From a virus, in the IMG/VR virus record IMGVR_UViG_3300036768_001490, positions 64,001-128,000 of that record: a DNA stretch of 64,000 nt, one strand, 5' to 3'. A program made the translations under genes and the position numbers. The notes under the pieces were generated by a model. It ran no database searches. It was not told the origin of the DNA and saw nothing but the letters and a program-made list of their open reading frames with translations. Of the stretch, positions 1-18,136 are shown one piece after another. How positions within the stretch are numbered: the stretch's first letter is position 1; the number at the start of each line of letters is the position of its first letter.

Positions 1-178
1 CCAGGTAGGGCAGGAAGACGTTGGCGGAGCCGGAGGCACGCTTGATGAACTGCCGGCGGTCGTGACCGCGCAGTCTGCCGGATGCCATCTTGACCAGGGA
101 TGCCACCGGGCCGTCAAAGTCCCAGCCGGACGGGCTGACGATCTTGACCATCGCCATGAGTTCTCTTGCCTCCTGCTT

Positions 179-1633
179 CTACTTCCGCTGTTGCTGCTGT
201 TGCTGCTGTTGCTGCTGTTGCTGCTGTTGCTGCTGTTGCTGCTGCGTGGTCGTCGTGGGCTTGACGTGCTTCCGTACCAGCTCGCGCAGGCTTTCATGCC
301 GCTTCGCTTCATCTCGTCTGACGTTGTACAACAGCTCTAATGCTGGCGGTAATGCATAGACTGCTAACCGGCCGCCGACACGTACGCCCTTGCTGGGCGA
401 GGCGTACTGGTACGGTCCAATCCGGCGCAAGGGTCGTCCTGCCTGTCCCTCGGGAGATTTAAGGTAGCCCTCCTGCTTGTATTCGGAAAGTTGGTGGCGG
501 GTAAGTTGCATCTTGACGGGATGGTCGATGCCTGTGGATTGAGTGCTTAATTGCGGTTCTCCTCCTGTGGTGGTTCCTCCTTTCGTGGTTTCTCCTTTCG
601 TTGTTATCTTCGCCGGCGGGTTGTAAATCACCTCCGCTAAGACTTCGTCACGAGGCCCCGTCGTCGTGGAGGCTCTGCTCAGCAGTTCCATTGCCGTCAT
701 GCCTTTCTCTCTGCCCGTCGCCAATGTGGAATAAACCCTCTCCATTCGTTCGGGAGTAGCACCAGGCTTTGGGGTTTTGAGGTCGGGAGCAGTTCCTTTT
801 TCGGCACTAACTCTATTCAAGATGTTGATGACTTCTTCTGGCAATGGTGGATTGATTTCTCTCATTCCCTTAGCCAGATGCAATGGTTCAATAGAAGCCT
901 TCGGCCGGAGGTAGCCGACGCGGAGCCATTCCCCCGTGCGCAGTGGCTGAGTATGTGTCAGGATGTCAACGACCCCCAGGGCCGGCAGGATGGAAGAAGA
1001 GACCGGCAGATTCTTGTCTATGAACGTGTCGCCTCCTCGCCAGGGTTGAAACGTCCTCTTCGCCACGGCTGCCAGGTTTTCGTAGATGTTGCCAGCGTAC
1101 CTTCGGGCCGTGGAAGGCTCGGCGGTCAGATTCCTGACCTGTTCAGACAGCTCATCCAGCTTATTCTCGTCGATTACCACTTTCTTGCCGCCGCCGATGT
1201 CCACCTCGATCTTTTTCCCTCCACTTGCATCTCCTCCTCCACTGCCGCTACTCCCCTTGTTGCCGCTTCCACCCTGGCCGGAGCCGGCGGCCGGGCCACC
1301 TACTCCCATCAGGTGGGCGGCCCCTCCGCCCACTATGGTGCCCGCCAGACCGCCAAGCAGGGCAGGACCGAGGATGCTCCTCCGCTCGTGCTCTTCCTTT
1401 TCCTGGTTGCTCCAGATGGTGCCCAGTCCACCAATGGCAGCGCCGCCGACTCCGCCAATCAGGGCGCTCGCGGCCGTCGGGTTGGCCTTGGCCCATTCGC
1501 CAAAGGAGGTAAGGAAGTCGCGCTCTTTCTGGGCCTTCTTCTCCAACGGGGTCGGTAGGCGCGTGCGCAGCTCCACGGCGCGGCGGGCCAGTGCCTCCAC
1601 CGCTCCTTCCAACGTGGTCCGGTCGGGGTGCAT
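179..1633 (-). CDS. Putative virion/ejection protein: two Gly-zipper helices, LEKKA site, C-terminal polyQ
   Basis: 484 aa; GGVGGAAIGGLG and LLGGLAGTIVGGG segments after LEKKA; ends Q19-RK. Confidence 0.75.
   Translation of the reverse strand: MHPDRTTLEGAVEALARRAVELRTRLPTPLEKKAQKERDFLTSFGEWAKANPTAASALIGGVGGAAIGGLGTIWSNQEKEEHERRSILGPALLGGLAGTIVGGGAAHLMGVGGPAAGSGQGGSGNKGSSGSGGGDASGGKKIEVDIGGGKKVVIDENKLDELSEQVRNLTAEPSTARRYAGNIYENLAAVAKRTFQPWRGGDTFIDKNLPVSSSILPALGVVDILTHTQPLRTGEWLRVGYLRPKASIEPLHLAKGMREINPPLPEEVINILNRVSAEKGTAPDLKTPKPGATPERMERVYSTLATGREKGMTAMELLSRASTTTGPRDEVLAEVIYNPPAKITTKGETTKGGTTTGGEPQLSTQSTGIDHPVKMQLTRHQLSEYKQEGYLKSPEGQAGRPLRRIGPYQYASPSKGVRVGGRLAVYALPPALELLYNVRRDEAKRHESLRELVRKHVKPTTTTQQQQQQQQQQQQQQQQQQQRK
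188..244. repeat. 9-bp microsatellite (ctgttgctg)n encoding 19 Gln
   Basis: Seen directly. Confidence 0.95.
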
Positions 1634-1679
1634 GGCAACCTACCTCCCTGTCTCCTCCTGTCTTTGCCAGCTGTCCGTC

Positions 1680-3020
1680 CTAGCCAAGCACCGACTTGGG
1701 TGCCGAGGCGATCTCCTTCGTGAAAGGAGTTATATCCCTGCTCTGGGCCATGATCCGCTCCGTGTCTGCCAGTTCCTTGGCCTCGAACGGCTCCATCAGC
1801 CCCGCCAGCCGACGGTGCAGTACCGGCCGCAGCAGGGCCGCGTTGTCCGCCACGCGCGGCGCCACCTGGGAGATCTCGTTGTATGCCTGGAGTACCTTGT
1901 CCGGGTCGTAACCCGAAATGGGGTCGTCCGGGTCCGTCATGAATCGGGTCAGCATGGCATGCGACCGGATCTTGCGCAGCTCGTTCCGGTGGGTCGGGTC
2001 TTCCAGTTCTAGCCAGATGTCCTCCAGCAGCTCCTTCTTGGTCTGGGGCACGTTTTCCAGCAGGCGGGACACCATCGAGCCTGCCGTGGCAGCAATCGGA
2101 GTGTTGAACATCACAATGTCAGCGGCCGCCTTGTCACTGCCTCGTTGCGGTCCCGGCGGCCGTGGACCGCTGGCCTGAACGAAAGGGCGGAACGCTTCCT
2201 CCCGTACCGTGGCTTCCTTGGTCCGGCAGGCTGCCAGGGCCTGGCGGGCACGGACGCAGTCCTCCGCCGCCTGGATGCAGGCGCGGATGGAAGAGAACGG
2301 CTCGCTCTCCAGGTCCAGGGGCGACTTCTGGACCGTCAGTCCTGCCGCGGCCCGCTTCTCGCGTAGGTGGGCCTGAGAGTAGACCAGGTCAAGGAGCGGC
2401 GGCGCCGCGTTGCCGAAATAGGTCCGGGCCGCCTGCTCGACCGCGGCGAACGGCAGCCGGTCACGCGCCGTTTTCTTGAAGTAGTGTACCAGGCCGCCGA
2501 CATGGTGCCGGACCCGGTCGGCCGCCGCCGCTGCCCGGCGCGACCATTCCTCGGTCATCTGCTGGTGCCGCTGCACCGCGCCGTAGGCCCTGTGCAGCGC
2601 CGCCATTGAGTCCCGCGGATACGGCGCCGGGCGGTCAGCCAGAGGCGGCATCTCCCGCGCCGCCTTCTCCCGTGCGGGCCGCTTCCACCAGCGGTCCGGC
2701 GGGGAAGCATACTCATCCGGTAGGCGCTCCGACGCTTTCTTCTCGCCGCCGTAGAGATCGGCAATGACCTTCTCCGGGTCCGCCAGCGGATAGCTGGCCA
2801 GCTTGTCCAGGACGTTGCCGCCGCTCTGCCACTGGCCCAGCTGCCGGCCAGTGTTGTAGGCGTGGGCCACCAGCCGGATCTTGCCCGGCCCGAACTTCTC
2901 TTCCCGGGCAACCTTGGCCAGGGCCTGGTCCGGCGCCATGCCCCCTTCCACCAGGTCGTTGGCGCGCCGGACCGCTTCCACCAGCTGCTGCTCTTCCGCC
3001 GAGTCGATGGTCTGGACCAT
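1680..3020 (-). CDS. Hypothetical helical protein with several K-x-A sites (putative virion)
   Basis: 446 aa; SD-like GGAGGGA before ATG; EKKAS, EKAAR, EKRAA, DKAAA. Confidence 0.75.
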   Translation of the reverse strand: MVQTIDSAEEQQLVEAVRRANDLVEGGMAPDQALAKVAREEKFGPGKIRLVAHAYNTGRQLGQWQSGGNVLDKLASYPLADPEKVIADLYGGEKKASERLPDEYASPPDRWWKRPAREKAAREMPPLADRPAPYPRDSMAALHRAYGAVQRHQQMTEEWSRRAAAAADRVRHHVGGLVHYFKKTARDRLPFAAVEQAARTYFGNAAPPLLDLVYSQAHLREKRAAAGLTVQKSPLDLESEPFSSIRACIQAAEDCVRARQALAACRTKEATVREEAFRPFVQASGPRPPGPQRGSDKAAADIVMFNTPIAATAGSMVSRLLENVPQTKKELLEDIWLELEDPTHRNELRKIRSHAMLTRFMTDPDDPISGYDPDKVLQAYNEISQVAPRVADNAALLRPVLHRRLAGLMEPFEAKELADTERIMAQSRDITPFTKEIASAPKSVLG

Positions 3021-3041
3021 GCCGTCCCTCCTTCCTTCTCG

Positions 3042-4079
3042 TTAGGGCAGCGGCGCCTCCTTGCGCGCGGCAGCGCCGGACTTCCGGCTGGGAGCCGGCA
3101 ACTTGTCCGGCCAGTCCTTGCCCAGGTCCGGCGCCTGCCCTCCGGCCGCGACCTGGAGCAGCTCATCATCGCGCAGCTCGGCCGCCATGCGGTCGAAGCG
3201 ACCGACCTCCGTGTCGCGGTATACCTTGTCCCCCTCGTCGCCGAAGGCCCAGGGGATCTCGTCGATCATGGCCTGGATGTGCCGCTCCGTGACTGTCCGT
3301 TGCTGCTCGCGCGACTCCTCCGAGCGCTCGAACTCGATGATGCGGGCGTGGATCTGGAACAGCTCCATCGCGTTGTACTTGTTGACCTCGAACTGGAGCG
3401 CCGCCTGCACGGAGCGCCGCCGGATGATGGCCGCCCAGGTCGCGTCCAGCCAGTTGGCCATGTCATCTGGCGACGTCAGCGGCTTGCCGACAGGCAGCGC
3501 GTGGATGAAAAAGTCAACCAGGTGCGGGCCGCCGAAGTAGGCGAACAGCTTGAGCGAGGCGTCTAGGAACGGGTGAGCCACGGTGCTGTCACGCGGCATG
3601 ACCACGCCGTCGTGGCTGACCGGCGCGGGGGCATAGTGCCGGTCGAACGCGGGCAGCAGCACCTGCTTGGTGATCCAGTCCCGCGCGTTCAGGTGCTCGA
3701 CCACGTTGAAGAACAGTGCCTCGTACCAGCGGATGGCGCCTGGCGTCGTCTTCATGACCTCGGCGATGTGCTCGAAGCTCTGTCGGGCCAGCAGGCGCGC
3801 CTCGATGAACAGGGCCCCTTCCGGCTCGCTGCTGTACCGCTCGTGGAACTCGTGCGCGTAGTACAGGTCGGGCATGTCCCAGAACAGGCGCTCGCGGTCA
3901 GCTTCGCTTTCGATGTGCTGCCAGCGCAGCTGGAACTTGCGCGCGGCCCGGATGAACTCGTCGTCGTGCCGCGTGCAGCGGCCGGGATTGGACCAGCGCA
4001 TCATGGACATGACCCGTTCCCAGCGCCAGTCTGGCCGACAGAAGAAGCTCTTCTTCTGATAGGTGGCGTTCAACTTCAT
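3042..4079 (-). CDS. Hypothetical protein
   Basis: 345 aa, globular composition, operon spacing. Confidence 0.75.
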   Translation of the reverse strand: MKLNATYQKKSFFCRPDWRWERVMSMMRWSNPGRCTRHDDEFIRAARKFQLRWQHIESEADRERLFWDMPDLYYAHEFHERYSSEPEGALFIEARLLARQSFEHIAEVMKTTPGAIRWYEALFFNVVEHLNARDWITKQVLLPAFDRHYAPAPVSHDGVVMPRDSTVAHPFLDASLKLFAYFGGPHLVDFFIHALPVGKPLTSPDDMANWLDATWAAIIRRRSVQAALQFEVNKYNAMELFQIHARIIEFERSEESREQQRTVTERHIQAMIDEIPWAFGDEGDKVYRDTEVGRFDRMAAELRDDELLQVAAGGQAPDLGKDWPDKLPAPSRKSGAAARKEAPLP

Positions 4080-4094
4080 GCTTGTCCTCTCCCC

Positions 4095-4556: not shown

Positions 4557-4558
4557 TG

Positions 4559-7243
4559 CTAGTTCCTCGCTGCTTCCAGGACGCTGGGCTCGGACGGGTC
4601 GGGGTTGCCCACGCCGTCCAGCAGGCTGCCGATGCCCTTGACTGTCTTCTCCTGGAGGAACAGGCAGACGTCGCCCAGCGTCTCAAAGGCGTTCCGGATG
4701 GAGTCCTCCAGCTCGGGCAAGTCTTGCTTGCCGTAGCGGTCCTCGAACTCCTCCTGGTGCCAGTAGAACATGAACAGGATCCGTCCCAGCTTGTCCAGCG
4801 CCTTCATCAGGTCGCCCAGGTAGCGGTCGATGAGGGTTTCCTGCCGCACCGACTTGAGCATGCCGCTTATCATGGCGGTGTCGAAGACCTCCTTCTGCCC
4901 GGACATGACCGCCTGCTGCGCCACCTGCATGGCCCGCTCGTCCGGCAGGTAGAAGGGGTCGTAGGCGGACGGGTTGGCCAGCTGGGACGACAGCGCGTCC
5001 ACCGGCAGGAACTCCTCCTGCGGGTAGATGGCAGGGACCGCGCCCAGGCCGCTGGGCTCGACCCCCAATAGCGGCGGCGGGAGCGCGGGCGCCTGCGGCC
5101 CCGGTTGCAGGTCCGTTCCCAGAGGCAGAGGGAAGCCCTGGCCGTACTTGACGAAGTAGGTGACGGGGCGGCCGCGCAGCCGGCTGGCGGCTGCTTCCTT
5201 GAGCATGAGGCGTGCCTGCTTCTCGCGCAGGCCGTGGTCGCGCACCAGGGAGATGAGCGCCGCCTTCTTGGACATGCGCTCCTGTCCGCGCTCGCTCCGG
5301 ATCCACACCTCGCCGGCACCCGTGTCGTGCAACCGCACCTGCGGCAGCGTGCCTTGCAGCATGAACTGGACGTCAATCAGGTTGCCTGGCTGGATCGGAG
5401 TATCAGCCGAGCCACTGTGGCCGCTGTCCTTCGCCTCGTCGTCCTCTTCCGCCCCGGAAGGCGCTTCGACCGTGATGACCTTGTAGTCTGCCGGCACGTA
5501 CAGCTCTCCGTTGACCGAGCGCAGGCCGGAGCCCCGCCGCCGGTTGATGACCAGCCAGTCGCCTCCTTGACCGTAGACCATCCACTCGCGGTGGCGCGGC
5601 CATTGCCTCCGGGCCGCTTGGCCAGGAGGGACGTCCCACCAGCGCACCTGGTCCTGCCATTCCACCCGGTAAGTGCCGTCGCCGTAGTCCTCCAGCACGC
5701 GGAACGGCACCGTACCCGAGCCGTTGGCGTGCAGGGCGACATAGGTGCCGCCCTCTTCCAGGCTGTCCACGCTGTCCAGGCCACGGACATAGTCCACGAA
5801 GTCCTGGCGCACCGGACAGTCGCAGGTCTTGACCCAGATGTTGTGGCGGTGCGTGTTTAGCCAGTCCCGCGGCCGTTCCCGCCGCAGCACCAGATAGAAG
5901 TCCTCGCGGCCGCGGCCGGAGTGAGGATGGCAGATGACCACCATCTCCTGGAAAGTGCCCGGCTTCTCCAGCACTTCGTACAGGCCGCTCTCCGCCGGGT
6001 TGGCCAGCTCCATCCGGACCTGCGTGTTGTAGGCGATGCTGGTGTCGTCACCGTGCGGGTCGCGCTGGTCCCGGATGAGTACCGTGTCGCGCAGCAGCCG
6101 CTCCCGTTCCTCCTCGGTCAGCTCGTCCTTGTTGACCGTGATGGGCACGTCGCCGTCCACGTCCAGGGCGATGACGGTCAGGCTGGCCTTCTTGGGCTCC
6201 TGCTCCTGCTCTGCCTCGTTCAGCAGCGCCGGCTGGGGCTGCTTATTCTTTTTGTTGCGCCGCAAGGGACGGGGAGGAACGATGTAGGACTCCGCTGCCT
6301 TGGTGACGAGGCTGTCCGCCGTGACCAGGGCCTGCTCGGCCAGGCGGCGGAAGAAGTCGGCGCCGTAGAACTGGTCGAAGCCTTTTTTGATGAGAGGATA
6401 CTTCAGGTAGCACTGCTCGAAGGCTAGCTTGAGCAGAGGGAAGTCCGCCAGGAAGCCGGACAGGTCGAACCGGTGCGCATGGGGTGCCAGGGCAGCCTTC
6501 CAGGGGGACGCCACGACCTGGTCCAGGCGCAGGTCGGTGGCGTCCTTGACCAGGTCGGGGTACAGGGCACTAGCCTTTCCGACTGCCAGGGCGCAGGCAA
6601 GCGGAAGGAATGGCCGGGCCCAAGCGGCAACGTGGACCGGCAACACCTGGCCGTGCCGGTCGGCGGCATACTTGGAGACGGACGGCGGCAGCTGGAGGCG
6701 GGTCAGATTGGGCATCAGGCCGCCAAGCTGGAAGGTGGTCTGATCGGACGGCTCTCCCAGGGTGTGGGGCAGGCGCGAGATCAGGTGGTTGACCCAGTTC
6801 TCCTTCAGGGGGACAAAGGTGTTGTACTTCTTGATGTAGAGCAGCTCGTGCCCTTTCAGGTCGCCATTGAGGAAGAAGCAGGGGACGTAGAGCCACTGGT
6901 CTCCCACCTTGAAGCCGAACAGGCCCACCGCCTTGGTGTTGTCCTCGTTGCGGTCCACGAGCTGGAAGCCGATAATGAAGTCCAGCAGGCGCGGGCTCTT
7001 GTCCTTGATGTAGGAGTAGGCAAGCGAGGAGAATGCCTGCTCGAACCCTTGCTCCTGCTCGCCGCCCAGGGACGCTGTCTTGAAGTGGGTGGTAGCACAG
7101 GAGCGCAGGTGCTGCCGGAGCGCCCGCGGCGGCAGGGCCGAGCGCCAGTAGGAACCGACCGCCGTGGCCCGTTTCTCGAACAGCGACTTGCGCGCGGTGT
7201 ACATGGCTGACGTCACCTCGTCCTTGTTCCTGGTCACGGTCAA
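4559..7243 (-). CDS. Large hypothetical protein with multiple K-x-A sites (putative virion)
   Basis: 894 aa; TTG start overlaps upstream TGA (TTGA coupling); FEKRA, HFKTA, VTKAA, PKKAS. Confidence 0.8.
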   Translation of the reverse strand: MTVTRNKDEVTSAMYTARKSLFEKRATAVGSYWRSALPPRALRQHLRSCATTHFKTASLGGEQEQGFEQAFSSLAYSYIKDKSPRLLDFIIGFQLVDRNEDNTKAVGLFGFKVGDQWLYVPCFFLNGDLKGHELLYIKKYNTFVPLKENWVNHLISRLPHTLGEPSDQTTFQLGGLMPNLTRLQLPPSVSKYAADRHGQVLPVHVAAWARPFLPLACALAVGKASALYPDLVKDATDLRLDQVVASPWKAALAPHAHRFDLSGFLADFPLLKLAFEQCYLKYPLIKKGFDQFYGADFFRRLAEQALVTADSLVTKAAESYIVPPRPLRRNKKNKQPQPALLNEAEQEQEPKKASLTVIALDVDGDVPITVNKDELTEEERERLLRDTVLIRDQRDPHGDDTSIAYNTQVRMELANPAESGLYEVLEKPGTFQEMVVICHPHSGRGREDFYLVLRRERPRDWLNTHRHNIWVKTCDCPVRQDFVDYVRGLDSVDSLEEGGTYVALHANGSGTVPFRVLEDYGDGTYRVEWQDQVRWWDVPPGQAARRQWPRHREWMVYGQGGDWLVINRRRGSGLRSVNGELYVPADYKVITVEAPSGAEEDDEAKDSGHSGSADTPIQPGNLIDVQFMLQGTLPQVRLHDTGAGEVWIRSERGQERMSKKAALISLVRDHGLREKQARLMLKEAAASRLRGRPVTYFVKYGQGFPLPLGTDLQPGPQAPALPPPLLGVEPSGLGAVPAIYPQEEFLPVDALSSQLANPSAYDPFYLPDERAMQVAQQAVMSGQKEVFDTAMISGMLKSVRQETLIDRYLGDLMKALDKLGRILFMFYWHQEEFEDRYGKQDLPELEDSIRNAFETLGDVCLFLQEKTVKGIGSLLDGVGNPDPSEPSVLEAARN

Positions 7244-8415
7244 TAGTAATTCGAGTTCAACAGTCTGTTGATGTCGTAGGCGGCGTATTGCTGCGCCTGC
7301 TGCTGGCGTTTGCGTTCGTCCTTCTTCTGCGGGAGGATGTGTTCATACGTGAACGCCTGGGGGCGATAGTTAAGTTTAACTGGAGCGTATGGATTCATGT
7401 ACGCATGGTGGATCTGGTTCCCCCGTTGCTGGTAACGGCCTGGACCAAAATGTGACAGGTAGCCGAGGCTGTCGTCTACTTCGTCATCAAACTTCTGTTG
7501 TCCAGGTTGTGCCGGCTGAGCTGGTGGCTTCGCTGGTGGCTGCGCTGGTGGCTGCGCTGGTGGCTGCGCTTGCTGCATCTCGGAAGGATGGTACGTTACG
7601 TTCAACGGTATAGGAAATCGCATATTTTCGCTCTTACTCTCTGGATTACTCCTGTAATAAGTTTGCCAGTTGCCCGAACCTTTTGCGAGTTCTCGCAGTT
7701 CTCCGAGCCTTGATGTTGGAATAAATTCCATCTGCTGACTGCTCCGCAGGCTTTCTATTTGGTCATTCAGCACTTGTTTACGAAAAGGATTGGTTTCATT
7801 GTTGGCCTCAGTTTCCAATAAACGTATGGTTTCAGCAATTCTTTTGCCAACGTCCGATTTGCTGTACTCGTAGTCGTATTCCTTTTTTAACTTACTTAAT
7901 GCCTTCTGTGCGCTATCCAAGTAATACTGGGCATTCACTGATCCGCCGAAAGACTTTGGTAGGGAATCTAGGAGGGTATAATCTGAACCAAATTCGTTTT
8001 TCTTCAGCTGATTTATCAAACGCAGCTTCTTGCTAATATCTCCCGCTGATCCAATATCACTGTATAGTGATCGAACCAACTCATTGTAACGCTCCATAGC
8101 GTTTTGGTAGGCTTCCTCCGCTGGAACCTCTTTGAAGAAAGGTGACAACCAGGGTGGCGGAGCGTCTTTTGCACCATATTTCAGATCACGATGAACGTCG
8201 GATATATGGCCATATAATCCTGTGCCAATACCAGTAATCCCGAGAGCACCGAGTATTTTTCCGTAATGATTTCTTAAAAGATTAGTAGCAGAGCCAAGCA
8301 ATGGAATCCTTGGCCCTCTGTACAGAGCATCCTTGTACAGACCATTGCGGCGGCAGATGTCGTCCAGTGTGGCACGGCAGGCGAGCGCCAACCCCGCGGT
8401 GAGTTCCCTGTTCAT
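7240..8415 (-). CDS. Gly-zipper membrane-type protein with AT-rich cargo region and QPPA repeats
   Basis: Start moved to ATG 8415 (SD-like GAGAGGA); LGALGITGIGTGLYG helix after LYKDA. Confidence 0.7.
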   Translation of the reverse strand: MNRELTAGLALACRATLDDICRRNGLYKDALYRGPRIPLLGSATNLLRNHYGKILGALGITGIGTGLYGHISDVHRDLKYGAKDAPPPWLSPFFKEVPAEEAYQNAMERYNELVRSLYSDIGSAGDISKKLRLINQLKKNEFGSDYTLLDSLPKSFGGSVNAQYYLDSAQKALSKLKKEYDYEYSKSDVGKRIAETIRLLETEANNETNPFRKQVLNDQIESLRSSQQMEFIPTSRLGELRELAKGSGNWQTYYRSNPESKSENMRFPIPLNVTYHPSEMQQAQPPAQPPAQPPAKPPAQPAQPGQQKFDDEVDDSLGYLSHFGPGRYQQRGNQIHHAYMNPYAPVKLNYRPQAFTYEHILPQKKDERKRQQQAQQYAAYDINRLLNSNYY

Positions 8416-8485
8416 GGTTTCGTCCTCTCTTCCTTCAGGCATGGCGATTATAATCACCAGCGCCGGTAAGTTGCCAGCCTGGCCG

Positions 8486-11400
8486 TTACCAGCCAAAGGT
8501 CTCGCGGAACTGGCGTCTCCAGTGCAGGGGATTGAGCGCCGGCAGCGTTCTGCCGCCCGTGCCTGGAATGACCGCATTGCCTGTCAAATAGTCATCCCAG
8601 CCGGCCGCGGGACGCGAAAGAACGTCAACGATAAATTCAGTAGCATTGACAGCTCGGCGGAGGCCCTTGGTGTCCTTGGTGCCCTTCGCGTTCTCTTCAG
8701 CTAGCGCGCCAGCTAGAGCGTCCCTGACCAAGGTGGCCTCTTCCAGCATCTTCCCTCCCGTGAGCGGGTTCAGCGCTTCCTTGCGCTCCTCGTGACTGAA
8801 CGGGTTGATCATCTTGTGCCCCATCGCCATGTAAGTGAGGGACTGGGTGGGCGAAAGTTTGGAACTTTCTATGACAAGCTGGGCAGGCGTCTTGGTCTTG
8901 GCAATTTCCACATCGCGGATGAATTTCTCTTCCTGTTGGCTCAAACTTTCTCCTCTGGCCTTCTTGGCCTTGAGCCTCTCTGCTTCGGGGATGTCCTTTT
9001 CATGCAGTTGCTTCATCACGATCTTCTCGGCCTCCGTGGCAATGCCTTCCGCCTGCGCTGACATCGTCGTGCCGGCCGTGTGGATGTCCGCGACCGTCTT
9101 GGTAATGTTCTTAATCAGGTTCATGCTGCCTTCTGGGTTGTTGCTGTCCCGCTCAACGCGCGTGATCCCCTTGAACAGCCGGTGGAGCGAGTCGGCGACG
9201 ACGTTGCCCAGGGGGCCGTAATCCTTCGCACGCTCGTCTTCACTCAGCTGCAGTGCCGGCGTGAACGCGAAGGGGTCCACCGCGTTTCCACTCGCCAGCT
9301 CGCCTCGCCGGAGCCTGTCAGCCTGGTGTTTCCGGATGAGATTGCCAACGGCCGCCTGCGCCTCGAAGTGCTTGCCGATGTTCGACTCGGACGTCAGCTT
9401 GCTCTTGGCGGCGCCGTCGTCTGCCTGATCTTCGGACAGTGCCCGGTACAGGTCTTTGAAAAGGTTGTAACCCTCCACGCCCAGCTGGGCCCCTCCTTCC
9501 AGCATGATACGGCCGGTGTTGACGTGGTTGGAGCGAATGCCAAGTGCCGTGAGCAAGTTCATGCCCGGCTGCTGCCGCCACTTGTACAAGTCGAACAGGT
9601 CGGCCGTTCCCTGGATGGCCTTCTGGTTCTCGCTGCGGAACTTTCCCTCGGACGAGAGCAGCCGGTCCCAGCCGCCCTCTTGCCAGTCCTCCAGAATGTT
9701 GCTTCCGGCTTCGCCCAGGCCAGCGATAATAGCCGCAGGATTGACGACATATTTGCCTAGCCAGCCGGCCACGTTGAGCATCTTCGTGCCGCCGGACGTC
9801 AGTCCTCCCGCCGCGTTGAGGAGCCGAGCCGTAGTTCTTTCGCCCAGCAGGCGTTTCGCCACGTTGCTGGACGCTAGCCAATTCAGGGCCGTGCCGGTGC
9901 CTTGCATTCCACTGCCGGAAATCGAGGACAGCGCCTGCACGCCGGAAAACGGCAAGGACGCCAGGCTGACATAATTGTGCCACTTGAGCTGATTGTCGTC
10001 TTTCTTGCCTGCTGCCTCTGCATTATTGCTATTGTTTACGGCGGCGTCGCTATTGTTTACGACAGCATCTTCATGGCCACGGCCCAGGTCGAAGGCCAAG
10101 TAGGCCGGCGGCACAGCATACTGGTGGGGCGAGTGGGACGATTGGGAATACGGGTGGGGCAAGTGGGGCGATTGGGAGAAATCGTAGCTGAAGGTCCGCG
10201 GGCCGGTGACGTAGTCACCGTAGTCAGGCTGCTGCTGGCTGTTCTCGCCGGGACGTCCCGTCCCAGGCAGGTATCCTGGCGGCACCGGTCTGCCCTGTCC
10301 CTGCTGGCCTGGTCCAAAGGGCTGGTACTGGTACTGGCCGCGCACGTAGGGGCTCCGGCTGGTCAGGACATGGATCGCGTTCGGGTCCAGCAGGGAGCCG
10401 AAGCGGATGGCAGAGCCGACCAGGCCGCCGAAGCCAGAGTTGGGATCGTTCGGGTTGCCGCCGCCGCGGACAAACATGGCGGCCTGACGCGGATCGTCGT
10501 GCTGCCACATCATGGGTCTGCCCCGCGTGTACTCCCCCTGGTGCGGCGCGTACTGGTAGGGCTGGTACATGGTGGCGGGAGTGCGCACGACGCCGCGGAA
10601 CGGGTCTGGATTCCGGACAGAGGTTGGGCGGGTGGCCCCGGCGGTATGGGAGTTCCCTGCTGGCTGTGCCGCCGGCTTCGCCCCGCCGGAAGGATTCGCT
10701 CCGCCAGAGGCCGCCACCGGCTTGCTGCTGTCCTTGTTGTCGTCGGCGGCGGACTTGCCGAAGAACTGCGCCTCCGCCTGCCGCAGCAGGGCGTCCGCTT
10801 CCTGCCGCTGCGCTTCCTGGTCCCAGGACGACTTGTACCAGCCGCGGAAGATGCGGGACAGCATGCTGCCGCCCTCGTCGCTGCCGGCAGCTGCCGGAGG
10901 AGGTAAGTCGAGCGCCAGGCCGTCCGTGGCTACTAGCCGCGGTGCCGTCTTTCGCCGCGCCCCTCCCCGGGCGCTTTCCTCCATGCCGTCGGGAACGGTC
11001 CCCGGCTCCGGCTGACGTACCGGTCCGACCAGGCCGAAGTCCGAGGCCCTGGCCAGACCCGGCACGAAGCTGGTGCCGGACTCGTCCCAGCCGCGCCCCC
11101 GGTGGACGGCCTCCAGCAGGCCACCCTTGATGCCGGAGCCGTACATGCGCGCCAGGACGTCCGGGTCGTGCTGGAGAGAGTACATGCCGCGGATCATCTC
11201 GCCCTGGAACGGCGGCGGCTCGTCATGGACGACTACCCGCCGGATGCCGAACTGCTGAAGTTCCCGGATGACGCTGGGACGGACCCGGGTGCCGATGGTG
11301 TAGTGCAGCACCGGCTTCTCCAGGTACTTGCCGACCGCGCGGCGCACGTCCAGCTCCTGGTGGCCGGCGCGGGGCTGGTAGTTGTATTCCAGCGTGGCGT

Positions 11401-13372
11401 AGGGCACCACGTCGTCCGGCAGGTTCCCGCCGAACTCGTCCGTCAGGCGGACGTGGTTGATAAGGCCGCGGGCCAGGATTTCCACGTTGCGGCGGTTGAC
11501 CTTCAGCCCGGCCGACCGCATGGCGTCCGTGTAAGCCTGGACAAAGTAGCGGCGCCCCTCGCCGATGCCCTTGTGCTGCACGATCAGGTGTGGCTGCGGG
11601 ATACCGTCACTGATGACGTCACCGGCCTCGACCGTGTCGCCAGGACGGACCCGCAGGTTGAAGCCGGCGCCGACGTAGTGCCGGGTGCCGTTGATCCAGA
11701 CAAACTTGCCTCCGGCCGGAGCGTCCTCGATGCGCTCCACCGTGCCATCCTCGGTCGCGTGCGCTGCTCCGCCGCGGAACACCTTGGGCACCTGGATCAG
11801 CTGGTTAATGTACTGGAAACCGCTCACGGCCTTCTCACGTCCGGCCACGCCACCGCTGTGCTTGGCCGAAAGCTGCGCCTGCGACAGCGGCTCCGACAGG
11901 GCCTGGGCGGCGGTGAGGCCAACCTGCTCGCCGCGGCCAGGCAGAACGCCGCGTTCACGCACACCAACGTCCCGTGCGTAAACACCACCATCAGGACTGC
12001 CGCCCACCACCGGACTTCGCACAAGAATGCGAGCATGGCCTCTCCGCCGGATGTCCTTGAGAATCTTTGGCGTCAGCACCGTGTTCTTCCGGTACGGCCC
12101 CACGTCCTGAGCCAGCAGGGCGCCCTCGTTGTCCGGGTCGTCCACGTCCACGGGAAGTCCGCGCGGCGTCGGGTCGTCCCGCGGGTCTTCCTCGTCCACT
12201 ACCACCAGGCGGTGCGAGACCTGGTTGAGCTGCTTGCTGTTGGACACGACCATGCCGTTGGCCAGCACGAACAGGTGGTCCGGGTGGTCCACTTCGATGT
12301 CATAGGTCGGCCGCCAGCCGACTTCTTCCCGCCGCACCAGGCGGCACAGCAGGACGTGCCTGTCCACCGGCCGCCGCGGCTCCTCTCCGTACCCGACCCC
12401 GGCCGGGACAAGGGCCGGCTGCCGCGGCCTCGCCGCCACCAGGCGGAGGCCGGCAGCTGCCACCTGACGCAGCGGCAGCAGGAGGTAGGGACGTCGTCCT
12501 CCCGGCGGCGCTGCCAGGACACGGTGGTCCTCTGTCGCCTCGATGGTGATGGCGGCCCTGCCGGCGCGGAAGACGTACCGCCAGACCCGGCGGAGACCGT
12601 GGACAAACAGGGCCCGGACCCGCGTGGGGAACGTCCGTCCCCGCCGGTCGGCACCGAGGACAAGGTCGCCGGGACGCAGCTGCTCGATGGGGACGGAAGT
12701 CCCTTCCGGCCGGCACACCTGCGTTCCTTCCGCCAGGCACAGGAAACCGGCGTCCTGCGTGGAAAACTTGGTCGCCATGACGCCCTTGCGCGCCCCGTAG
12801 GTGCCTGCCCAGTATTCGACTGGCCGGTAGCCCTCGCTGTAGGACGACAGGATCGGCAGAGGCAGCACGTCGTCGCGGTGGTCGGCGAAGAGCAGGCCGG
12901 TGCCGCGCAGCTCCGCCAGGTTCATGGCGTTGCCGCGCGAACCGGACAGCACCTGGAAGGCCAGTGGGTTTTCCTCCCGCAGCGATTCCTGGTAGACCTC
13001 GTCTGGAATCTTCTCGGCCGCGCGGCCCACGGTCAGGACCAGCAGGTCGTTCCGCTGCCGGTCGGTCAGCCGGTCGTCGTCAAGGATCTTCTTGACCTTG
13101 GACCACAGTTCCCGTTGCTTCCGACGGGCAATCTCGGACTTGGCCATGTGCCGCAGGCCGAAGGAGAAGCCGCCCGTCTCCGACGCGGCCTGGCGGCCGA
13201 TGTCCGCCAGGTGCTTGCTAACGTCGCGGTATCGCTCCGTATGCTTCCGCGCCAGCTGGCGCAGCAACTCCGCCATGCCCTTCTTGTCCAGGACACGCTG
13301 GTAGTCGCGCAGGTCTTCTGGCAACGTCTCGTTGACCAGGAGCTGCCCCATGCTGGTGCGTAGAACTGGCAT
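8486..13372 (-). CDS. rpoC: RNA polymerase beta' C-terminal half (bridge helix, trigger loop) with mini-intein, fused to ~850-aa tail
   Basis: STQDAGFL/SKQL = bridge helix; GEQVGLTAAQALSEPLSQAQLSAKHSGG = trigger loop; NRRNVEILARGL; ATG 13372 just after upstream TGA. Confidence 0.9.
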   Translation of the reverse strand: MPVLRTSMGQLLVNETLPEDLRDYQRVLDKKGMAELLRQLARKHTERYRDVSKHLADIGRQAASETGGFSFGLRHMAKSEIARRKQRELWSKVKKILDDDRLTDRQRNDLLVLTVGRAAEKIPDEVYQESLREENPLAFQVLSGSRGNAMNLAELRGTGLLFADHRDDVLPLPILSSYSEGYRPVEYWAGTYGARKGVMATKFSTQDAGFLCLAEGTQVCRPEGTSVPIEQLRPGDLVLGADRRGRTFPTRVRALFVHGLRRVWRYVFRAGRAAITIEATEDHRVLAAPPGGRRPYLLLPLRQVAAAGLRLVAARPRQPALVPAGVGYGEEPRRPVDRHVLLCRLVRREEVGWRPTYDIEVDHPDHLFVLANGMVVSNSKQLNQVSHRLVVVDEEDPRDDPTPRGLPVDVDDPDNEGALLAQDVGPYRKNTVLTPKILKDIRRRGHARILVRSPVVGGSPDGGVYARDVGVRERGVLPGRGEQVGLTAAQALSEPLSQAQLSAKHSGGVAGREKAVSGFQYINQLIQVPKVFRGGAAHATEDGTVERIEDAPAGGKFVWINGTRHYVGAGFNLRVRPGDTVEAGDVISDGIPQPHLIVQHKGIGEGRRYFVQAYTDAMRSAGLKVNRRNVEILARGLINHVRLTDEFGGNLPDDVVPYATLEYNYQPRAGHQELDVRRAVGKYLEKPVLHYTIGTRVRPSVIRELQQFGIRRVVVHDEPPPFQGEMIRGMYSLQHDPDVLARMYGSGIKGGLLEAVHRGRGWDESGTSFVPGLARASDFGLVGPVRQPEPGTVPDGMEESARGGARRKTAPRLVATDGLALDLPPPAAAGSDEGGSMLSRIFRGWYKSSWDQEAQRQEADALLRQAEAQFFGKSAADDNKDSSKPVAASGGANPSGGAKPAAQPAGNSHTAGATRPTSVRNPDPFRGVVRTPATMYQPYQYAPHQGEYTRGRPMMWQHDDPRQAAMFVRGGGNPNDPNSGFGGLVGSAIRFGSLLDPNAIHVLTSRSPYVRGQYQYQPFGPGQQGQGRPVPPGYLPGTGRPGENSQQQPDYGDYVTGPRTFSYDFSQSPHLPHPYSQSSHSPHQYAVPPAYLAFDLGRGHEDAVVNNSDAAVNNSNNAEAAGKKDDNQLKWHNYVSLASLPFSGVQALSSISGSGMQGTGTALNWLASSNVAKRLLGERTTARLLNAAGGLTSGGTKMLNVAGWLGKYVVNPAAIIAGLGEAGSNILEDWQEGGWDRLLSSEGKFRSENQKAIQGTADLFDLYKWRQQPGMNLLTALGIRSNHVNTGRIMLEGGAQLGVEGYNLFKDLYRALSEDQADDGAAKSKLTSESNIGKHFEAQAAVGNLIRKHQADRLRRGELASGNAVDPFAFTPALQLSEDERAKDYGPLGNVVADSLHRLFKGITRVERDSNNPEGSMNLIKNITKTVADIHTAGTTMSAQAEGIATEAEKIVMKQLHEKDIPEAERLKAKKARGESLSQQEEKFIRDVEIAKTKTPAQLVIESSKLSPTQSLTYMAMGHKMINPFSHEERKEALNPLTGGKMLEEATLVRDALAGALAEENAKGTKDTKGLRRAVNATEFIVDVLSRPAAGWDDYLTGNAVIPGTGGRTLPALNPLHWRRQFRETFGW
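12239..12739 (-). mobile_element. Mini-intein (167 aa, no endonuclease) in beta' bridge helix
   Basis: CLAEGT start, ATEDH block B, TYDIEV block F, VVSN/S end; removal restores GFL-SKQL. Confidence 0.92.
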
Positions 13373-13374
13373 GG

Positions 13375-13794
13375 TCACTTCACCCACACCCTCTGGCCGT
13401 CAGCCAGGCGCAGGCAGCGCGACCGAGGGGAGAACAACCAGATGGTGATGCGCGGCTGGTTTGCCATGCATACCTCGCGGCAACGCCATACATGGTGCTC
13501 GTCCTGGCTGCTGGACACCAGCAACAGGACCACAGGCAGGCGTCGGGAGCGGGCGCCGTAATAGAGGGACTTACCCACTGCCTCGGCCCAGTCGGGTGCC
13601 CAGGCCACGGCGACGGCATGGTGAGGGGTCAGAAGGTCGATGCGCGTGCCGTCGTAGTTGCTTGCCCCGGCCTGGGCCGGCAGGCCGCTGGAGGTCAGGC
13701 TGGCTGCCAGGCATCCAGCCCAGTCCTCCTCTTCGGGAACGTTGCCGCCGGTCAGCAGGCGGCGCAGCCACGACCGGAAGTGCTGGAGCATCAC
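13375..13794 (-). CDS. Small restriction-endonuclease-like (PD-(D/E)XK) protein, probably degenerate
   Basis: DGTRIDLLTP..AVAVAWAPDWAEAVGKSLYY resembles recalled family DGTRVD..T..HAIEVDW..KWAEAIGQSLYY. Confidence 0.5.
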   Translation of the reverse strand: MMLQHFRSWLRRLLTGGNVPEEEDWAGCLAASLTSSGLPAQAGASNYDGTRIDLLTPHHAVAVAWAPDWAEAVGKSLYYGARSRRLPVVLLLVSSSQDEHHVWRCREVCMANQPRITIWLFSPRSRCLRLADGQRVWVK

Positions 13795-13814
13795 GCCGGC
13801 CCAAAATCCGTTTT

Positions 13815-14618
13815 TTAGCTGTCCGCGGGCACCTGCCCGTCCGCTGGGACCGGGACCGCCACGTCCACTTCCTCCTGGTCCTGCTCCTGTCGGGACCGTC
13901 CCTTCCGGGACCGTCCCTTCCGGGGACGCTGCTCCGTGGTCGCGTCAACGGCAGCGTCCGCTTCCTGGACGAAAGAGGAGGGAGAAGGGACGTCCTCCGT
14001 CTCCGCCGCTGGCAGGTTGGCTGGATGCAGCAGGCATTCATCCACGGGGCCGCTGCCTGGGTCCGGACGCGGCTGCCCTCCGTCCTGCTGGGCCCGGGCC
14101 GCCGGGGCCTCTTCGGCCGGAGTGTAGGACAGGCGGCATTTGTGGTACTGGTCCTCCGTGATGACCTCGCGCGTCACCATCATTTCCAGGGCAGCGCGGG
14201 TCCGGCGCAGCAGCGCTCCGGCGCCATGCCGGACGTAAATGACCAGGCCGATAGCACCCTGGTGCAGCCGGGCCGCCGCTTCCTGCAAGACCTCAGAGAT
14301 GTCTCCTTCCTCACGCACGACCAGGCGGTCGTCGCCTCCTGTGGGCCAGAAGGCGGTCCTGGCCGGCGGCGGCGCAGCGGCCGTCCGCTCCGGGCAGCGG
14401 TAATACTCATCCGCCGAATAGAGGACGTCCGGGTAGCGCGTGGCCGGTCGCCTAGCCAGCCGGCAGGCCGGCGCGGGCCGCGCCCGCGTGTAGCACTCCT
14501 TGGTCACGGCCGAGACGTCGTTGCTGGCGTAATACCTGTCCGCGCTGCTCCGGTCGCGCCAGAAGTTTGTCCGCCGGGAAGGGATGGATCTGCGTGGAAG
14601 TTCCGGTGCCAAGGGCAT
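13815..14618 (-). CDS. Hypothetical protein with RKGRS repeats near C-terminus
   Basis: ORF fills gap in operon; start uncertain. Confidence 0.6.
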   Translation of the reverse strand: MPLAPELPRRSIPSRRTNFWRDRSSADRYYASNDVSAVTKECYTRARPAPACRLARRPATRYPDVLYSADEYYRCPERTAAAPPPARTAFWPTGGDDRLVVREEGDISEVLQEAAARLHQGAIGLVIYVRHGAGALLRRTRAALEMMVTREVITEDQYHKCRLSYTPAEEAPAARAQQDGGQPRPDPGSGPVDECLLHPANLPAAETEDVPSPSSFVQEADAAVDATTEQRPRKGRSRKGRSRQEQDQEEVDVAVPVPADGQVPADS

Positions 14619-14678
14619 TCCCTCCTTGTGTGCCTGCATGGCAAGGGCCGTTTCCGCCTGGGATTATCACCCGTCACG

Positions 14679-14960
14679 TCACTCGCGTGGACGGGGTCCA
14701 GCGATCAGCTGGGCTCCCGGGGGTGGGCCCGACAAACGGATGCGGTCCACCACGGTCGTCTGGGAGACGCCGAGGCGGCGCAGCAGGCGGTTAAAGTCCT
14801 CCATGCCCGCCATGCTGGCCGAGTAGGCGCCGTCCGGGCCGTAGTGAGCGGCGGCGAAGATCGGCGTGCCGTCGTCCGTCTCCAGGATGACCTGGCTGAC
14901 CGGAAGGACCAGTACCTGCCCGCGGCCAATGCCGTCGAGCGGGATGAGCTTGGCGATCAT
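14679..14960 (-). CDS. Hypothetical protein
   Basis: 93 aa; ATGA overlap with upstream gene. Confidence 0.7.
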   Translation of the reverse strand: MIAKLIPLDGIGRGQVLVLPVSQVILETDDGTPIFAAAHYGPDGAYSASMAGMEDFNRLLRRLGVSQTTVVDRIRLSGPPPGAQLIAGPRPRE

Positions 14961-15787: not shown

Positions 15788-15879
15788 GTGAAAGCTCCAT
15801 TTTTCGTGGTCACGTACCGTGTGGCCCAGTCTACCGTACCTTGCCGGGCGCACACCAGTCCGCTTCGTCCGCCGCCCCC

Positions 15880-16380: not shown

Positions 16381-16381
16381 G

Positions 16382-18136
16382 TCAACCTCCCAGGATCTCG
16401 ACAGGGGTGTCCACTGTGATTTCACCGCGCCGATAGGCCCGGATGGCATCCTGGCGGGAACGGAACACGCGCGGGCGCTTCCTTGACACGGAGCGCCGCC
16501 GGGTGGACTCGTACAGCCCGCCCAGGTACTCCTGCCCCGGCATGTGTACCGGCGACTGGAAGTCCGCCGGCGAGAACAGGGACCGGCTGGGCAGCAGCCG
16601 GTCGTATGCCTCCTTCACCGCCTCCGGCGACGTCGGCACGTGGAACTGCATGGCGTCGCCGTCGAAGTCGGCGTTGAACCCCTTGGTCACGAGGGGGCTC
16701 AGGTGGATGGTGTTTCCGCTTACCAGCCGGGGGCGAAAGGCCAGGATGCCGAACTTGTGCAGCACGGGGGCCCGGTTGACGTACACGGGGCGCTCTTCCA
16801 TTTCCTCTTGCATGATGGAGCGGGCCAGCGGCGTCCGCTCCCGGACGTGGCGCAGGGCCTCGCGGATCGGCAGGCCGCGCCGCCGGAGCCGGCGGACGAT
16901 GAACTTGCTGTAGACGTCGAACGCCTGGTTCTCCGGGATGCCGATGGAGTCCATGTCCATGTCCGGGTCCGGCGTGATGACGGCCCGGCCGACGTTGTCC
17001 ACGGTGGTGGAGAGCAGCTTGCGCTGCATCGTGCCGAACTTGGGGGATTCTCCGAAGATGCTCTTCAGGATCCCACTGACGCCCTTCTCCTGGAGCTTGG
17101 GGTGCATGGGCTCGCCGAGACCCACGACGGCCTGGAAGGCGTGGTAGACGGCCAGGCGCTCGGGGCCCGCGTTCTTCTTGCCCACCTGCTTGACCATGTC
17201 GTTGTAGTTGCGGATGGCGTCCAGCAGCTCCTTGTACAGGTAGTTGGGGTCCGATATAAGCGGGATGCCCGTGTCTCCCAGCATGGACACGGGCCGGAAG
17301 GCAGGCGGCAGCACGGGCACCCGATGCAGCACCCAGTCGCGCGGGTGCAGGCCGAGCTTCTTGGCGCTGTCCAGGTACTGCCAGCGACGGATCGCCTCGT
17401 CCCGGTGGGAAGCGCGGCCGTACCGCCACTCCGCCCGGGCCTTGTCCAGCTCCTTGTCCAGGTCCAGCTGGTCCAGCGCCTTGGCCACGGCCTGGGGTCC
17501 GCTGCCGTACCCCGGCAGAGACTCGTCTCCGGCCAGCACCGCCTCGAACTTCTTCTGCGTCAGGCCCAGGATGCGGCGGATCGGCTCCTCCATGACCGGG
17601 TTCGGCAGCGGCTCGGGCAACTCGATGGCGGCCCAGCGCCGGCCGCCGTGTCCACCCGTCAGTTTGGGGTCAAACAGGCCGCCGGGGATGGGACTCATGT
17701 TGTCGTCGAAGCGCACCAGCTCCCCGGAACGGATGATGCGGTTGCCTGCCAGCTCCTTGACGTCCTGGTCCGTCAGGGCCATGACGTTTGCCCGGTGCCC
17801 GTCCGGGACGACATTGATGCCTGCCGCCTTCAGCTGGTGGACGAACTTATCGTACACGTAGGGCACCTTGGGCTTCACCGGCGTGAAGCCCAACATGAAC
17901 TGGAGCCAGAACTGTTCGTTCTTCTGTCCCCGGATGAGGCGGGCGTCCCGGAGCGTCTCCGTGGCCCCGTGGGACATCAGGGCGTTGACGTCCAGCATGG
18001 ACAGCCTCTTCGAGTTGCTGACGAGCACGCCGCAGACCGCGTACAGGTGGACGTCAGCGACCGTGATGTCGTAGACATCGGCCAGGCTGTCCCTGCCGGC
18101 AGACGGACAGTATGGCCGGACCTCCCTGACGCGCAT
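16382..18136 (-). CDS. rpoC: IntC + RNAP beta C-terminus + beta' N-terminal half with catalytic NADFDGD
   Basis: SKRLSMLDVNALMSHGA = GQRFGEMEVWALEAYGA; VPVLPPAFRP; NRAPVLH; GFNADFDGDAM; GGGAGG SD 7 nt upstream. Confidence 0.93.
   Translation of the reverse strand: MRVREVRPYCPSAGRDSLADVYDITVADVHLYAVCGVLVSNSKRLSMLDVNALMSHGATETLRDARLIRGQKNEQFWLQFMLGFTPVKPKVPYVYDKFVHQLKAAGINVVPDGHRANVMALTDQDVKELAGNRIIRSGELVRFDDNMSPIPGGLFDPKLTGGHGGRRWAAIELPEPLPNPVMEEPIRRILGLTQKKFEAVLAGDESLPGYGSGPQAVAKALDQLDLDKELDKARAEWRYGRASHRDEAIRRWQYLDSAKKLGLHPRDWVLHRVPVLPPAFRPVSMLGDTGIPLISDPNYLYKELLDAIRNYNDMVKQVGKKNAGPERLAVYHAFQAVVGLGEPMHPKLQEKGVSGILKSIFGESPKFGTMQRKLLSTTVDNVGRAVITPDPDMDMDSIGIPENQAFDVYSKFIVRRLRRRGLPIREALRHVRERTPLARSIMQEEMEERPVYVNRAPVLHKFGILAFRPRLVSGNTIHLSPLVTKGFNADFDGDAMQFHVPTSPEAVKEAYDRLLPSRSLFSPADFQSPVHMPGQEYLGGLYESTRRRSVSRKRPRVFRSRQDAIRAYRRGEITVDTPVEILGG
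18014..18136 (-). mobile_element. Split-intein C-fragment (IntC, 41 aa)
   Basis: MRVREVR...DVYDITVADVHLYAVCGVLVSN/S: blocks F and G, Asn then Ser+1. Confidence 0.88.

Follow-up and report, generated by a model that had tools for sequence, protein, structure and literature searches.

The subject of this report is a single open reading frame (ORF) in a stretch of 64,000 nucleotides (the window), which comprises bases 64001-128000 of the 182.7-kb IMG/VR virus contig IMGVR_UViG_3300036768_001490, a record estimated to be 84% complete that represents an uncultured phage known from metagenomes, with a genome of ~200 kb. The ORF joins the C-terminal half of the beta' subunit (beta'C) of a multisubunit RNA polymerase (RNAP) to a tail of ~850 amino acids (aa; residues 786-1633). 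An earlier note on this DNA had proposed that the subunit is made as a polyprotein, packaged by way of its tail and cleaved, or else tethered to a membrane after ejection. The features of the ORF and of its neighbours are collected in Table 1, and residue numbers throughout refer to the 1633-aa translation from the GTG at 13387. None of these 1633 codons is an internal stop, so that the frame does remain open past the end of the RNAP homology, as had been claimed, and the G+C content at third codon positions (GC3) is 0.63-0.93 along its entire length. The TGA of the upstream gene lies 2 nt before the ATG at 13372 (M6), which makes a start at M6 probable, and the true product of the beta'C-tail gene is therefore likely to have 1628 aa.

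Table 1. Features of the beta'C-tail ORF and of adjoining genes (positions in the window)
Feature	Position	Strand	Remarks
Whole ORF	8486..13387	-	1633 codons from GTG 13387; stop TAA at 8488-8486
RNAP beta' C-half, N-extein (aa 1-216)	12740..13387	-	Ends within the bridge helix (...YGARKGVMATKFSTQDAGFL)
Mini-intein, 167 aa (aa 217-383)	12239..12739	-	Delimited by intein-less orthologues and boundary residues
RNAP beta' C-half, C-extein (aa 384-785)	11033..12238	-	Holds the trigger-loop region (LSAKHSGGVAG)
Tail start (aa 786-880)	10748..11032	-	Pro-rich linker, RRKTA 10943-10957, amphipathic helix, FGKSA 10748-10762
Low-complexity G/P/Q/Y/S/N-rich region (aa 881-1130)	9998..10747	-	Recognized by composition
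Conserved ~58-aa motif (aa 964-1021)	10325-10498	-	Common to members of the P0002-type subgroup
C-terminal domain (aa 1131-1633)	8489..9997	-	Predicted all-helical; Gly/Ala-rich segments and GGWD at ~9659-9976
Partner subunit beta'N	16382..18136	-	DFDGD present; C-intein piece at its start
Partner subunit beta, 1720 aa	18168..23330	-	Two intein-sized insertions; N-intein piece at its end
Next gene downstream, 391 aa from ATG 8415	7240..8415	-	Leader ends LYKDA
894-aa member of the conserved ~800-900-aa family	4559..7243	-	K-x-A closes the leader; 12/43 Lys in K-x-A

Comparison with known polymerases identifies residues 1-785 as the C-terminal half of a bacterial-type multisubunit beta'. This part of the ORF is matched by the Pfam family Rpb1_5 (PF04998) at 1.7e-15 and by bacterial beta' chains in the PDB with E values down to 1e-32, the bacterial residues ~624-801 aligning with residues 38-217 and the bacterial residues ~867-1087 with residues 433-654; the gap between these two blocks is filled by a mini-intein (residues 217-383), which went unmentioned in the earlier note. 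The N-extein is 62% identical to residues 1-210 of an intein-less orthologue, P0002, and the C-extein is 52-64% identical to 32 related viral loci that were recovered with the RNAP part as the query. The Pfam and PDB matches reach residues ~702-718, and the 29 orthologues that lack a tail stop 10-43 aa past the position of ...SDFG785; the RNAP homology can therefore be said to end near residue 785, where it had originally been placed.

The genes for beta and for the N-terminal half of beta' (beta'N) lie just upstream on the same strand and are matched by Rpb2_6 at 4e-49 and by Rpb1_2 at 8e-28, respectively, the latter protein carrying the motif DFDGD. They belong to a single RNAP set, represented in the record by one Rpb2_6 locus and one Rpb1_5 gene; a second, non-virion set, as is characteristic of phiKZ-type phages, was not found in the 182.7 kb available (84% complete). 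In relatives of the window phage, beta and beta'N are fused in one protein of ~1470 aa and beta'C is separate. The closest matches in phage collections are ~30% identical and come from ~187-kb Vibrio phages, in which the genes are unannotated or listed as hypothetical proteins; another match at ~30% identity is found in a Salmonella phage of ~181 kb, whose gene bears the annotation of an RNAP beta subunit.

A fusion of this kind could be trivial if a stop had been missed, or if a frameshift or a chimeric assembly had joined beta'C to an unrelated frame downstream, and the G+C content does drop to 0.58 at 8001-10000. This explanation was tested and is rejected. GC3 is 0.63-0.90 along the tail, level with that of the RNAP part and of other genes, and shows no break at the junction in the open frame. 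In each of two Logan assemblies of microbial-mat metagenomes, which may derive from the source samples, one contig spans 8400-13400 with 0 differences and 0 gaps; the listed runs that contain this DNA include no RNA sequencing. Seven independent orthologues carry the same kind of fusion, one of them (P0002) being identical in ENA and JGI assemblies of ~234.6-234.9 kb, and the tail is under purifying selection, as described below. The fusion of beta'C to its tail is thus genuine, and it is also old and selectively maintained.

The homologues came from two directions. Among the 32 viral loci, beta'C ends 10-43 aa after the SDFG785 position in 29 and runs on for 594-698 aa in the other three, L002-L004; the 29 tail-less loci, which are from IMG/VR, are 52-58% identical to the window protein over the last ~385 residues of its RNAP portion and have the same gene order. 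A HMMER search with the tail only, against 1.84 billion representative proteins, returned six proteins, of which four (P0002, P0003, P0005 and P0006, with total lengths of 1297-1886 aa and tails of 687-889 aa) are tailed beta'C subunits. The other two, P0004 and P0007, were considered as stand-alone tail proteins and rejected, being 5'-truncated fragments at contig ends. Seven other beta'C genes with tails of 594-889 aa are therefore on hand, or eight tailed genes when the one in the window is counted. Searches that started from the tail had otherwise little to return: tblastn against all 32 related loci gave nothing at E <= 1e-3, scans of viral and metagenome contigs recovered the P0002 contig only, and neither residues 1150-1633 nor residues 930-1030 of the ORF gave a match in word-indexed homologue searches.

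When a maximum-likelihood tree is built from the RNAP part, all eight tailed genes fall on one side of a single branch with support of 100/99, and their RNAP parts are 60-73% identical to each other. Such a tree is consistent with one gain of the tail in the ancestor of this subclade and its retention while the RNAP part diverged. Among L002, L003 and L004, the ratio of nonsynonymous to synonymous substitution rates (dN/dS) lies at 0.035-0.039 in the RNAP part, whereas in the tail it is 0.31-0.37 for the low-complexity stretch and 0.11-0.22 for the C-terminal domain; values of 0.11-0.37 indicate that the tail is a functional yet fast-evolving protein sequence. An origin of the tail by fusion with a conserved neighbouring gene was considered and rejected, given that beta'C of the tail-less relatives directly precedes a conserved ~800-aa protein, the homologue of window 4559..7243, and that profiles of either tail type drew a blank in five relatives that are 95-100% complete. 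In the sister clade of the tailed phages (L008, at 8439-11333, L009 and L031) a gene of 964 codons stands right after beta'C; its product has Gly-zipper-like hydrophobic runs, a HELGH (HExxH) motif and a C-terminal DUF6321, and it was rejected as a relative of the tail, to which it is unrelated in sequence.

The tail is laid out as a Pro-rich linker, an amphipathic helix, the sequence FGKSA, a low-complexity stretch of ~250 aa and a predicted helical domain of ~500 aa, an arrangement that is also seen in L002-L004. The amphipathic helix (GGSMLSRIFRGW..., at residues ~840-875) is recognizable in relatives, GGMF..[IL]FK.S being kept in P0002, P0006 and P0003. Both the RKTA and FGKSA sites and the G/P/Q/Y-rich segments described in the earlier note are present, the former as RRKTA at residues 811-815 and FGKSA at residues 876-880; the combined fraction of G, P, Q, Y, S and N is 0.40-0.66 over the ~250-aa low-complexity stretch and 0.48-0.66 at residues 886-1085. 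Within this stretch lies the ~58-aa motif of Table 1 (DDP..A.FVRGGG.P.DP.SGFGG..G...RFGSL.D.NA...LT..SPYVRGQY), which is what matched P0003-P0007 and is common to all members of that subgroup. Several tails, those of L002-L004, P0003, P0002 and P0005, have low-complexity parts with recurring short motifs of the form [ST]NIM(P) or [ST]NIGSSTV, which are not evident in the tail of the window phage; a repeat resembling the heptads of the RNA polymerase II C-terminal domain (CTD) was not seen by eye in the translation.

For the C-terminal domain, P0002 is the sole detectable homologue (27-34% identity, E = 6e-36). When the two tail types, that of L002-L004 and that of the P0002-type subgroup, were compared profile against profile, nothing beyond a hydrophobic helix and GGWD could be aligned (E 0.01, probability 4%), so that their homology is not established by sequence. 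The structure prediction that had been proposed for the tail was of little help: AlphaFold2, run with a 2-sequence alignment, rendered the C-terminal domain as all helix with a mean predicted local distance difference test (pLDDT) score of 39, which makes the model unusable. The tail had no match in Pfam, PHROG or the PDB sequences (the last at E <= 5), every look-alike in a protein atlas scored below 0.9, and phmmer found no paralogue of it in the genome of the phage itself.

One can ask whether such a tail might anchor the polymerase in the host membrane, either after ejection or during the infection. The C-terminal domain opens with Gly/Ala-rich stretches (residues 1138-1160 and 1203-1232) followed by GGWD, and these, together with the amphipathic helix, might speak for membrane tethering; the Gly-rich helices had also been likened to those of neighbouring K-x-A proteins. 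The stretches are weakly hydrophobic and poorly conserved, however; the highest Kyte-Doolittle mean over 19 residues is 1.26-1.28 in the tail, where 1.6 is the usual threshold, and thus no segment qualifies as a transmembrane helix. The resemblance is not supported either: phmmer against the whole genome detected no sequence similarity between the tail and the neighbours. We regard a membrane anchor as quite improbable.

Another clue comes from the distribution of the tripeptide K-x-A in the proteins of this phage. Over the genome as a whole it is not enriched, occurring at 188/1689 Lys (11%) with an Ala frequency of 0.097, and in the RNAP part it occurs at 0/25 Lys. It is strongly enriched in two proteins encoded just upstream of the capsid gene, at 13/22 and 12/19 Lys; these are adjacent proteins of 505 and 448 aa at 60.6-64.2 kb of the genome (window -3357..157), past the left edge of the window. 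A 161-aa protein of the same region has K-x-A at 5/12 Lys. The protease and scaffold proteins of the phage are probably to be found here. K-x-A is strongly enriched as well in the 894-aa protein near the fusion (12/43 Lys).

In four protein families K-x-A closes a variable N-terminal leader that precedes a conserved core. The leader of the ~800-aa family, to which the 894-aa protein belongs, ends in this way in all 32 loci (QTKYA being among its sites); that of the ~240-aa protein with PPMDP repeats, whose gene lies between those for beta'N and beta'C, does so as well; that of the major capsid protein ends in EKQA or QKQA in six genomes; and that of the gene directly downstream of the fusion ends in LYKDA in the window phage and in LHKNA in the P0002 phage. 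By analogy with T4 and the phiKZ-like phages (PMC10052503), a K-x-A that closes a leader is the pattern one would expect of a maturation-protease site.

Against this background, the border between the RNAP part and the tail merits attention. The pattern [LFMIVW]-x-K-x-A (phi-x-K-x-A) occurs just once in the 1633 residues, as FGKSA at residues 876-880, 91 aa past the RNAP end, and the same motif is found 38-79 aa past the RNAP end in P0002 (LEKAA), P0006 (LEKVA), P0003 (LEKEA) and P0005 (MRKTA); in shuffled sequences a border match of this kind arises with a chance of 0.16-0.30 per sequence. L003 and L004 carry QTK[FL]A at the border, which is like the QTKYA of the ~800-aa family. The other site that had been pointed out, RRKTA, is not hydrophobic at P5, and the next residue after it is Pro. 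FGKSA is thus a candidate cleavage site at the RNAP/tail border.

The position of the gene is also suggestive. On one strand and in this order are found the genes for beta, beta'N and beta'C-tail, five more genes, those for the two K-x-A-rich proteins and the gene for the major capsid protein, so that the RNAP genes and the leader-bearing genes share one orientation and continue without a break into the head genes. The identity of the major capsid protein rests on a weak match to the PHROG 'major head protein' family (5.5e-5); the 505-aa protein upstream of it (window -1360..157), which is the candidate protease, matches a PHROG family of unknown function, and neither this protein nor the candidate scaffold nor the capsid protein had a Pfam hit. 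In window 1-20000, the numbers of terminator-like and of sigma-70-like sites are no higher than in shuffled sequence.

In the reading that we favour, with a probability of roughly 0.4, the tail acts like a scaffold module that targets the capsid and is then cut off at FGKSA. We base it on the phi-x-K-x-A at the border, the K-x-A at the leader ends of the capsid protein and the neighbouring families, and the location of the gene just upstream of the head genes. The helical C-terminal domain, connected to the enzyme through a spacer that is flexible and disordered, would assemble together with the interior of the prohead and would carry beta'C, and the assembled polymerase along with it, into the head. 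There the maturation protease would cut the single phi-x-K-x-A site (FGKSA|A), leaving beta'C with a stub of ~95 aa and the remainder of the tail to be freed or degraded, and the packaged polymerase might then enter the next host with the DNA and transcribe the early genes. A stronger form of this proposal, in which a bacterial-type multisubunit RNAP has become a virion-delivered enzyme through a huge C-terminal, scaffold-like 'propeptide' of beta' cut at phi-x-K-x-A, by a route independent in origin of those of phiKZ and N4, is put forward more tentatively. Of the polyprotein proposal in the earlier note, then, the fusion itself, the lone border motif, the K-x-A leader ends and the contiguity with the head genes speak for packaging and cleavage; the tail as a whole is not enriched in K-x-A, and RRKTA departs from the border motif.

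The candidate site at the border, the strong difference in evolutionary rate between tail and RNAP part, and the similar leader sites in neighbouring genes might also be expected of a polyprotein that serves for co-production only, in which the tail would be a virion or internal protein in its own right, removed by cleavage ahead of assembly or in the course of it, and the polymerase would stay in the cell. This seems to us unlikely, since no stand-alone gene for the tail was found (P0004 and P0007 having proved to be truncated), no homologue of the tail was detected in the tail-less relatives, and the fusion has been preserved over a deep divergence.

Several observations weigh against the capsid-targeting reading. 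There are 29 relatives without the tail, and profiles of either tail type found no match in five of the relatives, which are 95-100% complete, so that not even a stand-alone copy is detectable in these; either the tail is unneeded for packaging, or packaging is a clade-specific change of the life cycle. No K-x-A leader was seen on the beta subunits of the phage and its relatives or on the beta'C orthologues examined. In the tail K-x-A occurs at 5/40 Lys, which is not an enrichment (p = 0.47), and the border of L002 reads QTKLG, with Gly in place of Ala. The five lineages with the border motif are homologous and not independent of each other, which makes their agreement suggestive and not a statistical proof. 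The two K-x-A-rich proteins are not marked as protease or scaffold by any Pfam or named PHROG family, and comparisons with the phage's own genome, the PDB and Pfam/PHROG disclosed no similarity of the tail to known scaffold or ejection proteins. The known substrates of prohead proteases, moreover, lose propeptides from their N-termini (PMC10052503); as this is what the substrates of SPN3US do, a C-terminal 'propeptide' of 750 aa would be without precedent.

Some of the same observations fit a role for the tail in the cytoplasm, a possibility that we consider nearly as likely as packaging. The tail would then be a disordered spacer with a helical domain for oligomerisation or binding that tethers or concentrates the polymerase, be it at a replication/transcription compartment, in a condensate or at a host or phage partner; the CTD of eukaryotic RNA polymerase II and hub proteins that combine an intrinsically disordered region with helices, such as PopZ, might serve as models. 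It is in keeping with this role that the tail is placed at the C-terminus of a homologue of the largest RNAP subunit, that ~250 aa rich in G, P, Q, Y, S and N hold a conserved short motif, that NIM(P)/SNIGSSTV motifs are repeated in relatives, and that K-x-A is not enriched. Fast evolution under constraint (dN/dS 0.1-0.4) is common for interaction modules, and the fact that relatives manage without the tail implies that it is dispensable. Left unexplained by a cytoplasmic role are the single, conserved phi-x-K-x-A at the border and the siting of the gene among leader-bearing genes beside the head module, and the CTD-heptad-like repeat that the RNA polymerase II model would suggest was not seen.

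Insights into how a capsid-targeting tail might function can be drawn from phages in which a polymerase is known to travel with the virion. The C-terminal domain of the N4 virion RNAP has been reported, with reference to unpublished data, to be necessary for encapsidation (PMC4496689). The N4 enzyme, gp50, resembles the fusion in having a polymerase module followed by a long non-polymerase C-terminal domain, and targeting to the capsid followed by delivery with the DNA is what we propose here; it differs in being a single-subunit, T7-like protein of ~3,500 aa, whereas our candidate is a tail on a single subunit of a multisubunit enzyme of the bacterial type, whose packaging is putative. No sequence similarity of the tail to gp50 was found in the PHROG and PDB searches.

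Reviews describe phage multisubunit RNAPs as highly divergent phiKZ/AR9-like enzymes that come in two sets, one of which is packaged (PMC7824862, PMC13282480); in phiKZ-like phages the virion RNAP belongs to the head proteins, of which many undergo maturation at a short motif (PMC10052503, PMC7824862). The window phage shares with phiKZ, SPN3US and AR9 a phage-encoded multisubunit beta/beta' with a split beta'. It differs from them in having one RNAP set, with a beta' that matches bacterial beta' at E = 1e-32, in place of two highly divergent ones, and in the pattern of the split, its relatives joining beta to beta'N and keeping beta'C separate. In the phiKZ-like phages the cleavage motif ends in Glu and N-terminal propeptides are lost; in the window phage phi-x-K-x-A is the candidate, and the appendage lies at the C-terminus. 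The N-terminal propeptide that is the rule in T4 and SPN3US is lacking, as beta'C begins directly with RNAP homology and its extension is at the other end.

The protease tail of HK97, lambda C/Nu3 and the protease-scaffold fusion P2 gpO are cases in which a C-terminal extension delivers cargo into the procapsid and is later processed. Their cargo is the protease itself, however, and their extensions are far shorter; phmmer over the whole genome found no similarity between the tail and the K-x-A-rich scaffold candidate of the same phage. The likeness to the Rpb1 CTD of RNA polymerase II is one of analogy only, both being long low-complexity extensions, rich in Pro, Ser, Tyr, Gln and Gly, of a beta'-homologous subunit; the tail studied here shows no heptad or other regular repeat and ends in a helical domain of ~500 aa. 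On the sequence evidence, we would describe the finding as a phage RNAP subunit with an accessory, putative targeting domain that stands outside the phiKZ and N4 families of virion polymerases.

The RNAP genes of the window phage also carry several intein sequences. Residues 217-383 are a class 1 mini-intein, inserted in the bridge helix and without an endonuclease domain; its hallmarks are Cys1, a TEDH block and ...VVSN followed by Ser+1, in the context AGFL|C...TEDH...VVSN|SKQLNQ. P0002 reads AGFL-SKQLNQ, and P0002 and L002-L004 all pass from AGFL/AGFF into [SN]KQLNQ without an intein. The penultimate residue, usually His, is Ser in this intein, a trait shared with the other inteins of the phage family. 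The Pfam Hint profiles stay below their curated cut-offs on this segment (Hint_2 at 17.6 bits against 28.4, and Hint at 13 against 29.7), for which reason the assignment rests on the boundaries and on homology to inteins of the relatives. The latter are larger LAGLIDADG inteins that are sited elsewhere, in the trigger loop (SSKH|C in L029 and GQL|C in P0003), the tail-less L029 having such an intein instead of the mini-intein of the bridge helix.

The beta subunit has two insertions of intein size (~325-330 aa, at residues ~444-773 and ~1267-1589, from Cys to ...SGN|S) that are not in relatives, with the borders TPE|C...GN|SFRAG and TAE|C...GN|SKGQGR. At the beta/beta'N junction (18014-18536, minus strand), an N-intein piece (GGEMG|CFLGDTV...) forms the end of beta, and a C-intein piece (...VLVSN|SKRLSML) the start of beta'N; as the beta-beta'N protein of all relatives is unbroken across exactly that junction, a trans-splicing split intein would fit. 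With the mini-intein and the two insertions in beta, this brings the RNAP genes to four intein elements.

Other genes near the fusion add some detail to the picture. The gene directly after it (7240-8415) has a GC3 of ~0.4-0.6, where 0.8-0.9 is usual, and for this reason its composition looks foreign; the gene at its position in the P0002 phage (329 aa) shares the leader pattern alone (LHKNA vs LYKDA). The ~800-900-aa family adjoins the RNAP genes in all 32 loci, and in the tail-less ones it is encoded no more than ~2.5 kb downstream of beta'C (29/29), directly after it in 26/29. About 20% of the Lys residues of this family are in K-x-A, with an invariant K-x-A before the core [ILT]GG.G...FEQAFSNLAHAYL. 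AlphaFold2 gave the 894-aa member a pLDDT of 56 and no PDB fold matched at E <= 0.001; it was considered as a portal or other named protein and could not be so assigned. The conserved ~240-aa protein (window 14957-15800, minus strand; at ~5700-7100 in L002-L033) opens with a helical leader whose end reads K-x-A|[FV]VP; tandem (G)GAPPMDPSM repeats follow, and then a stretch rich in Gln that resembles a coiled coil.

Taken together, these observations bring to light a family of ~200-kb environmental phages whose single RNAP is much closer to the bacterial enzyme than the phiKZ/AR9 RNAPs that the reviews describe, and in which one clade has added an appendage of 600-900 aa to beta'. Should the appendage act in the cytoplasm, it would be an analogue, from the bacterial world, of the C-terminal tethering domain of a polymerase. 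Should it be a module for packaging and processing, it would represent a second route, of independent origin, by which a multisubunit polymerase came to join the virion, and K-x-A would be a new motif for a maturation protease.

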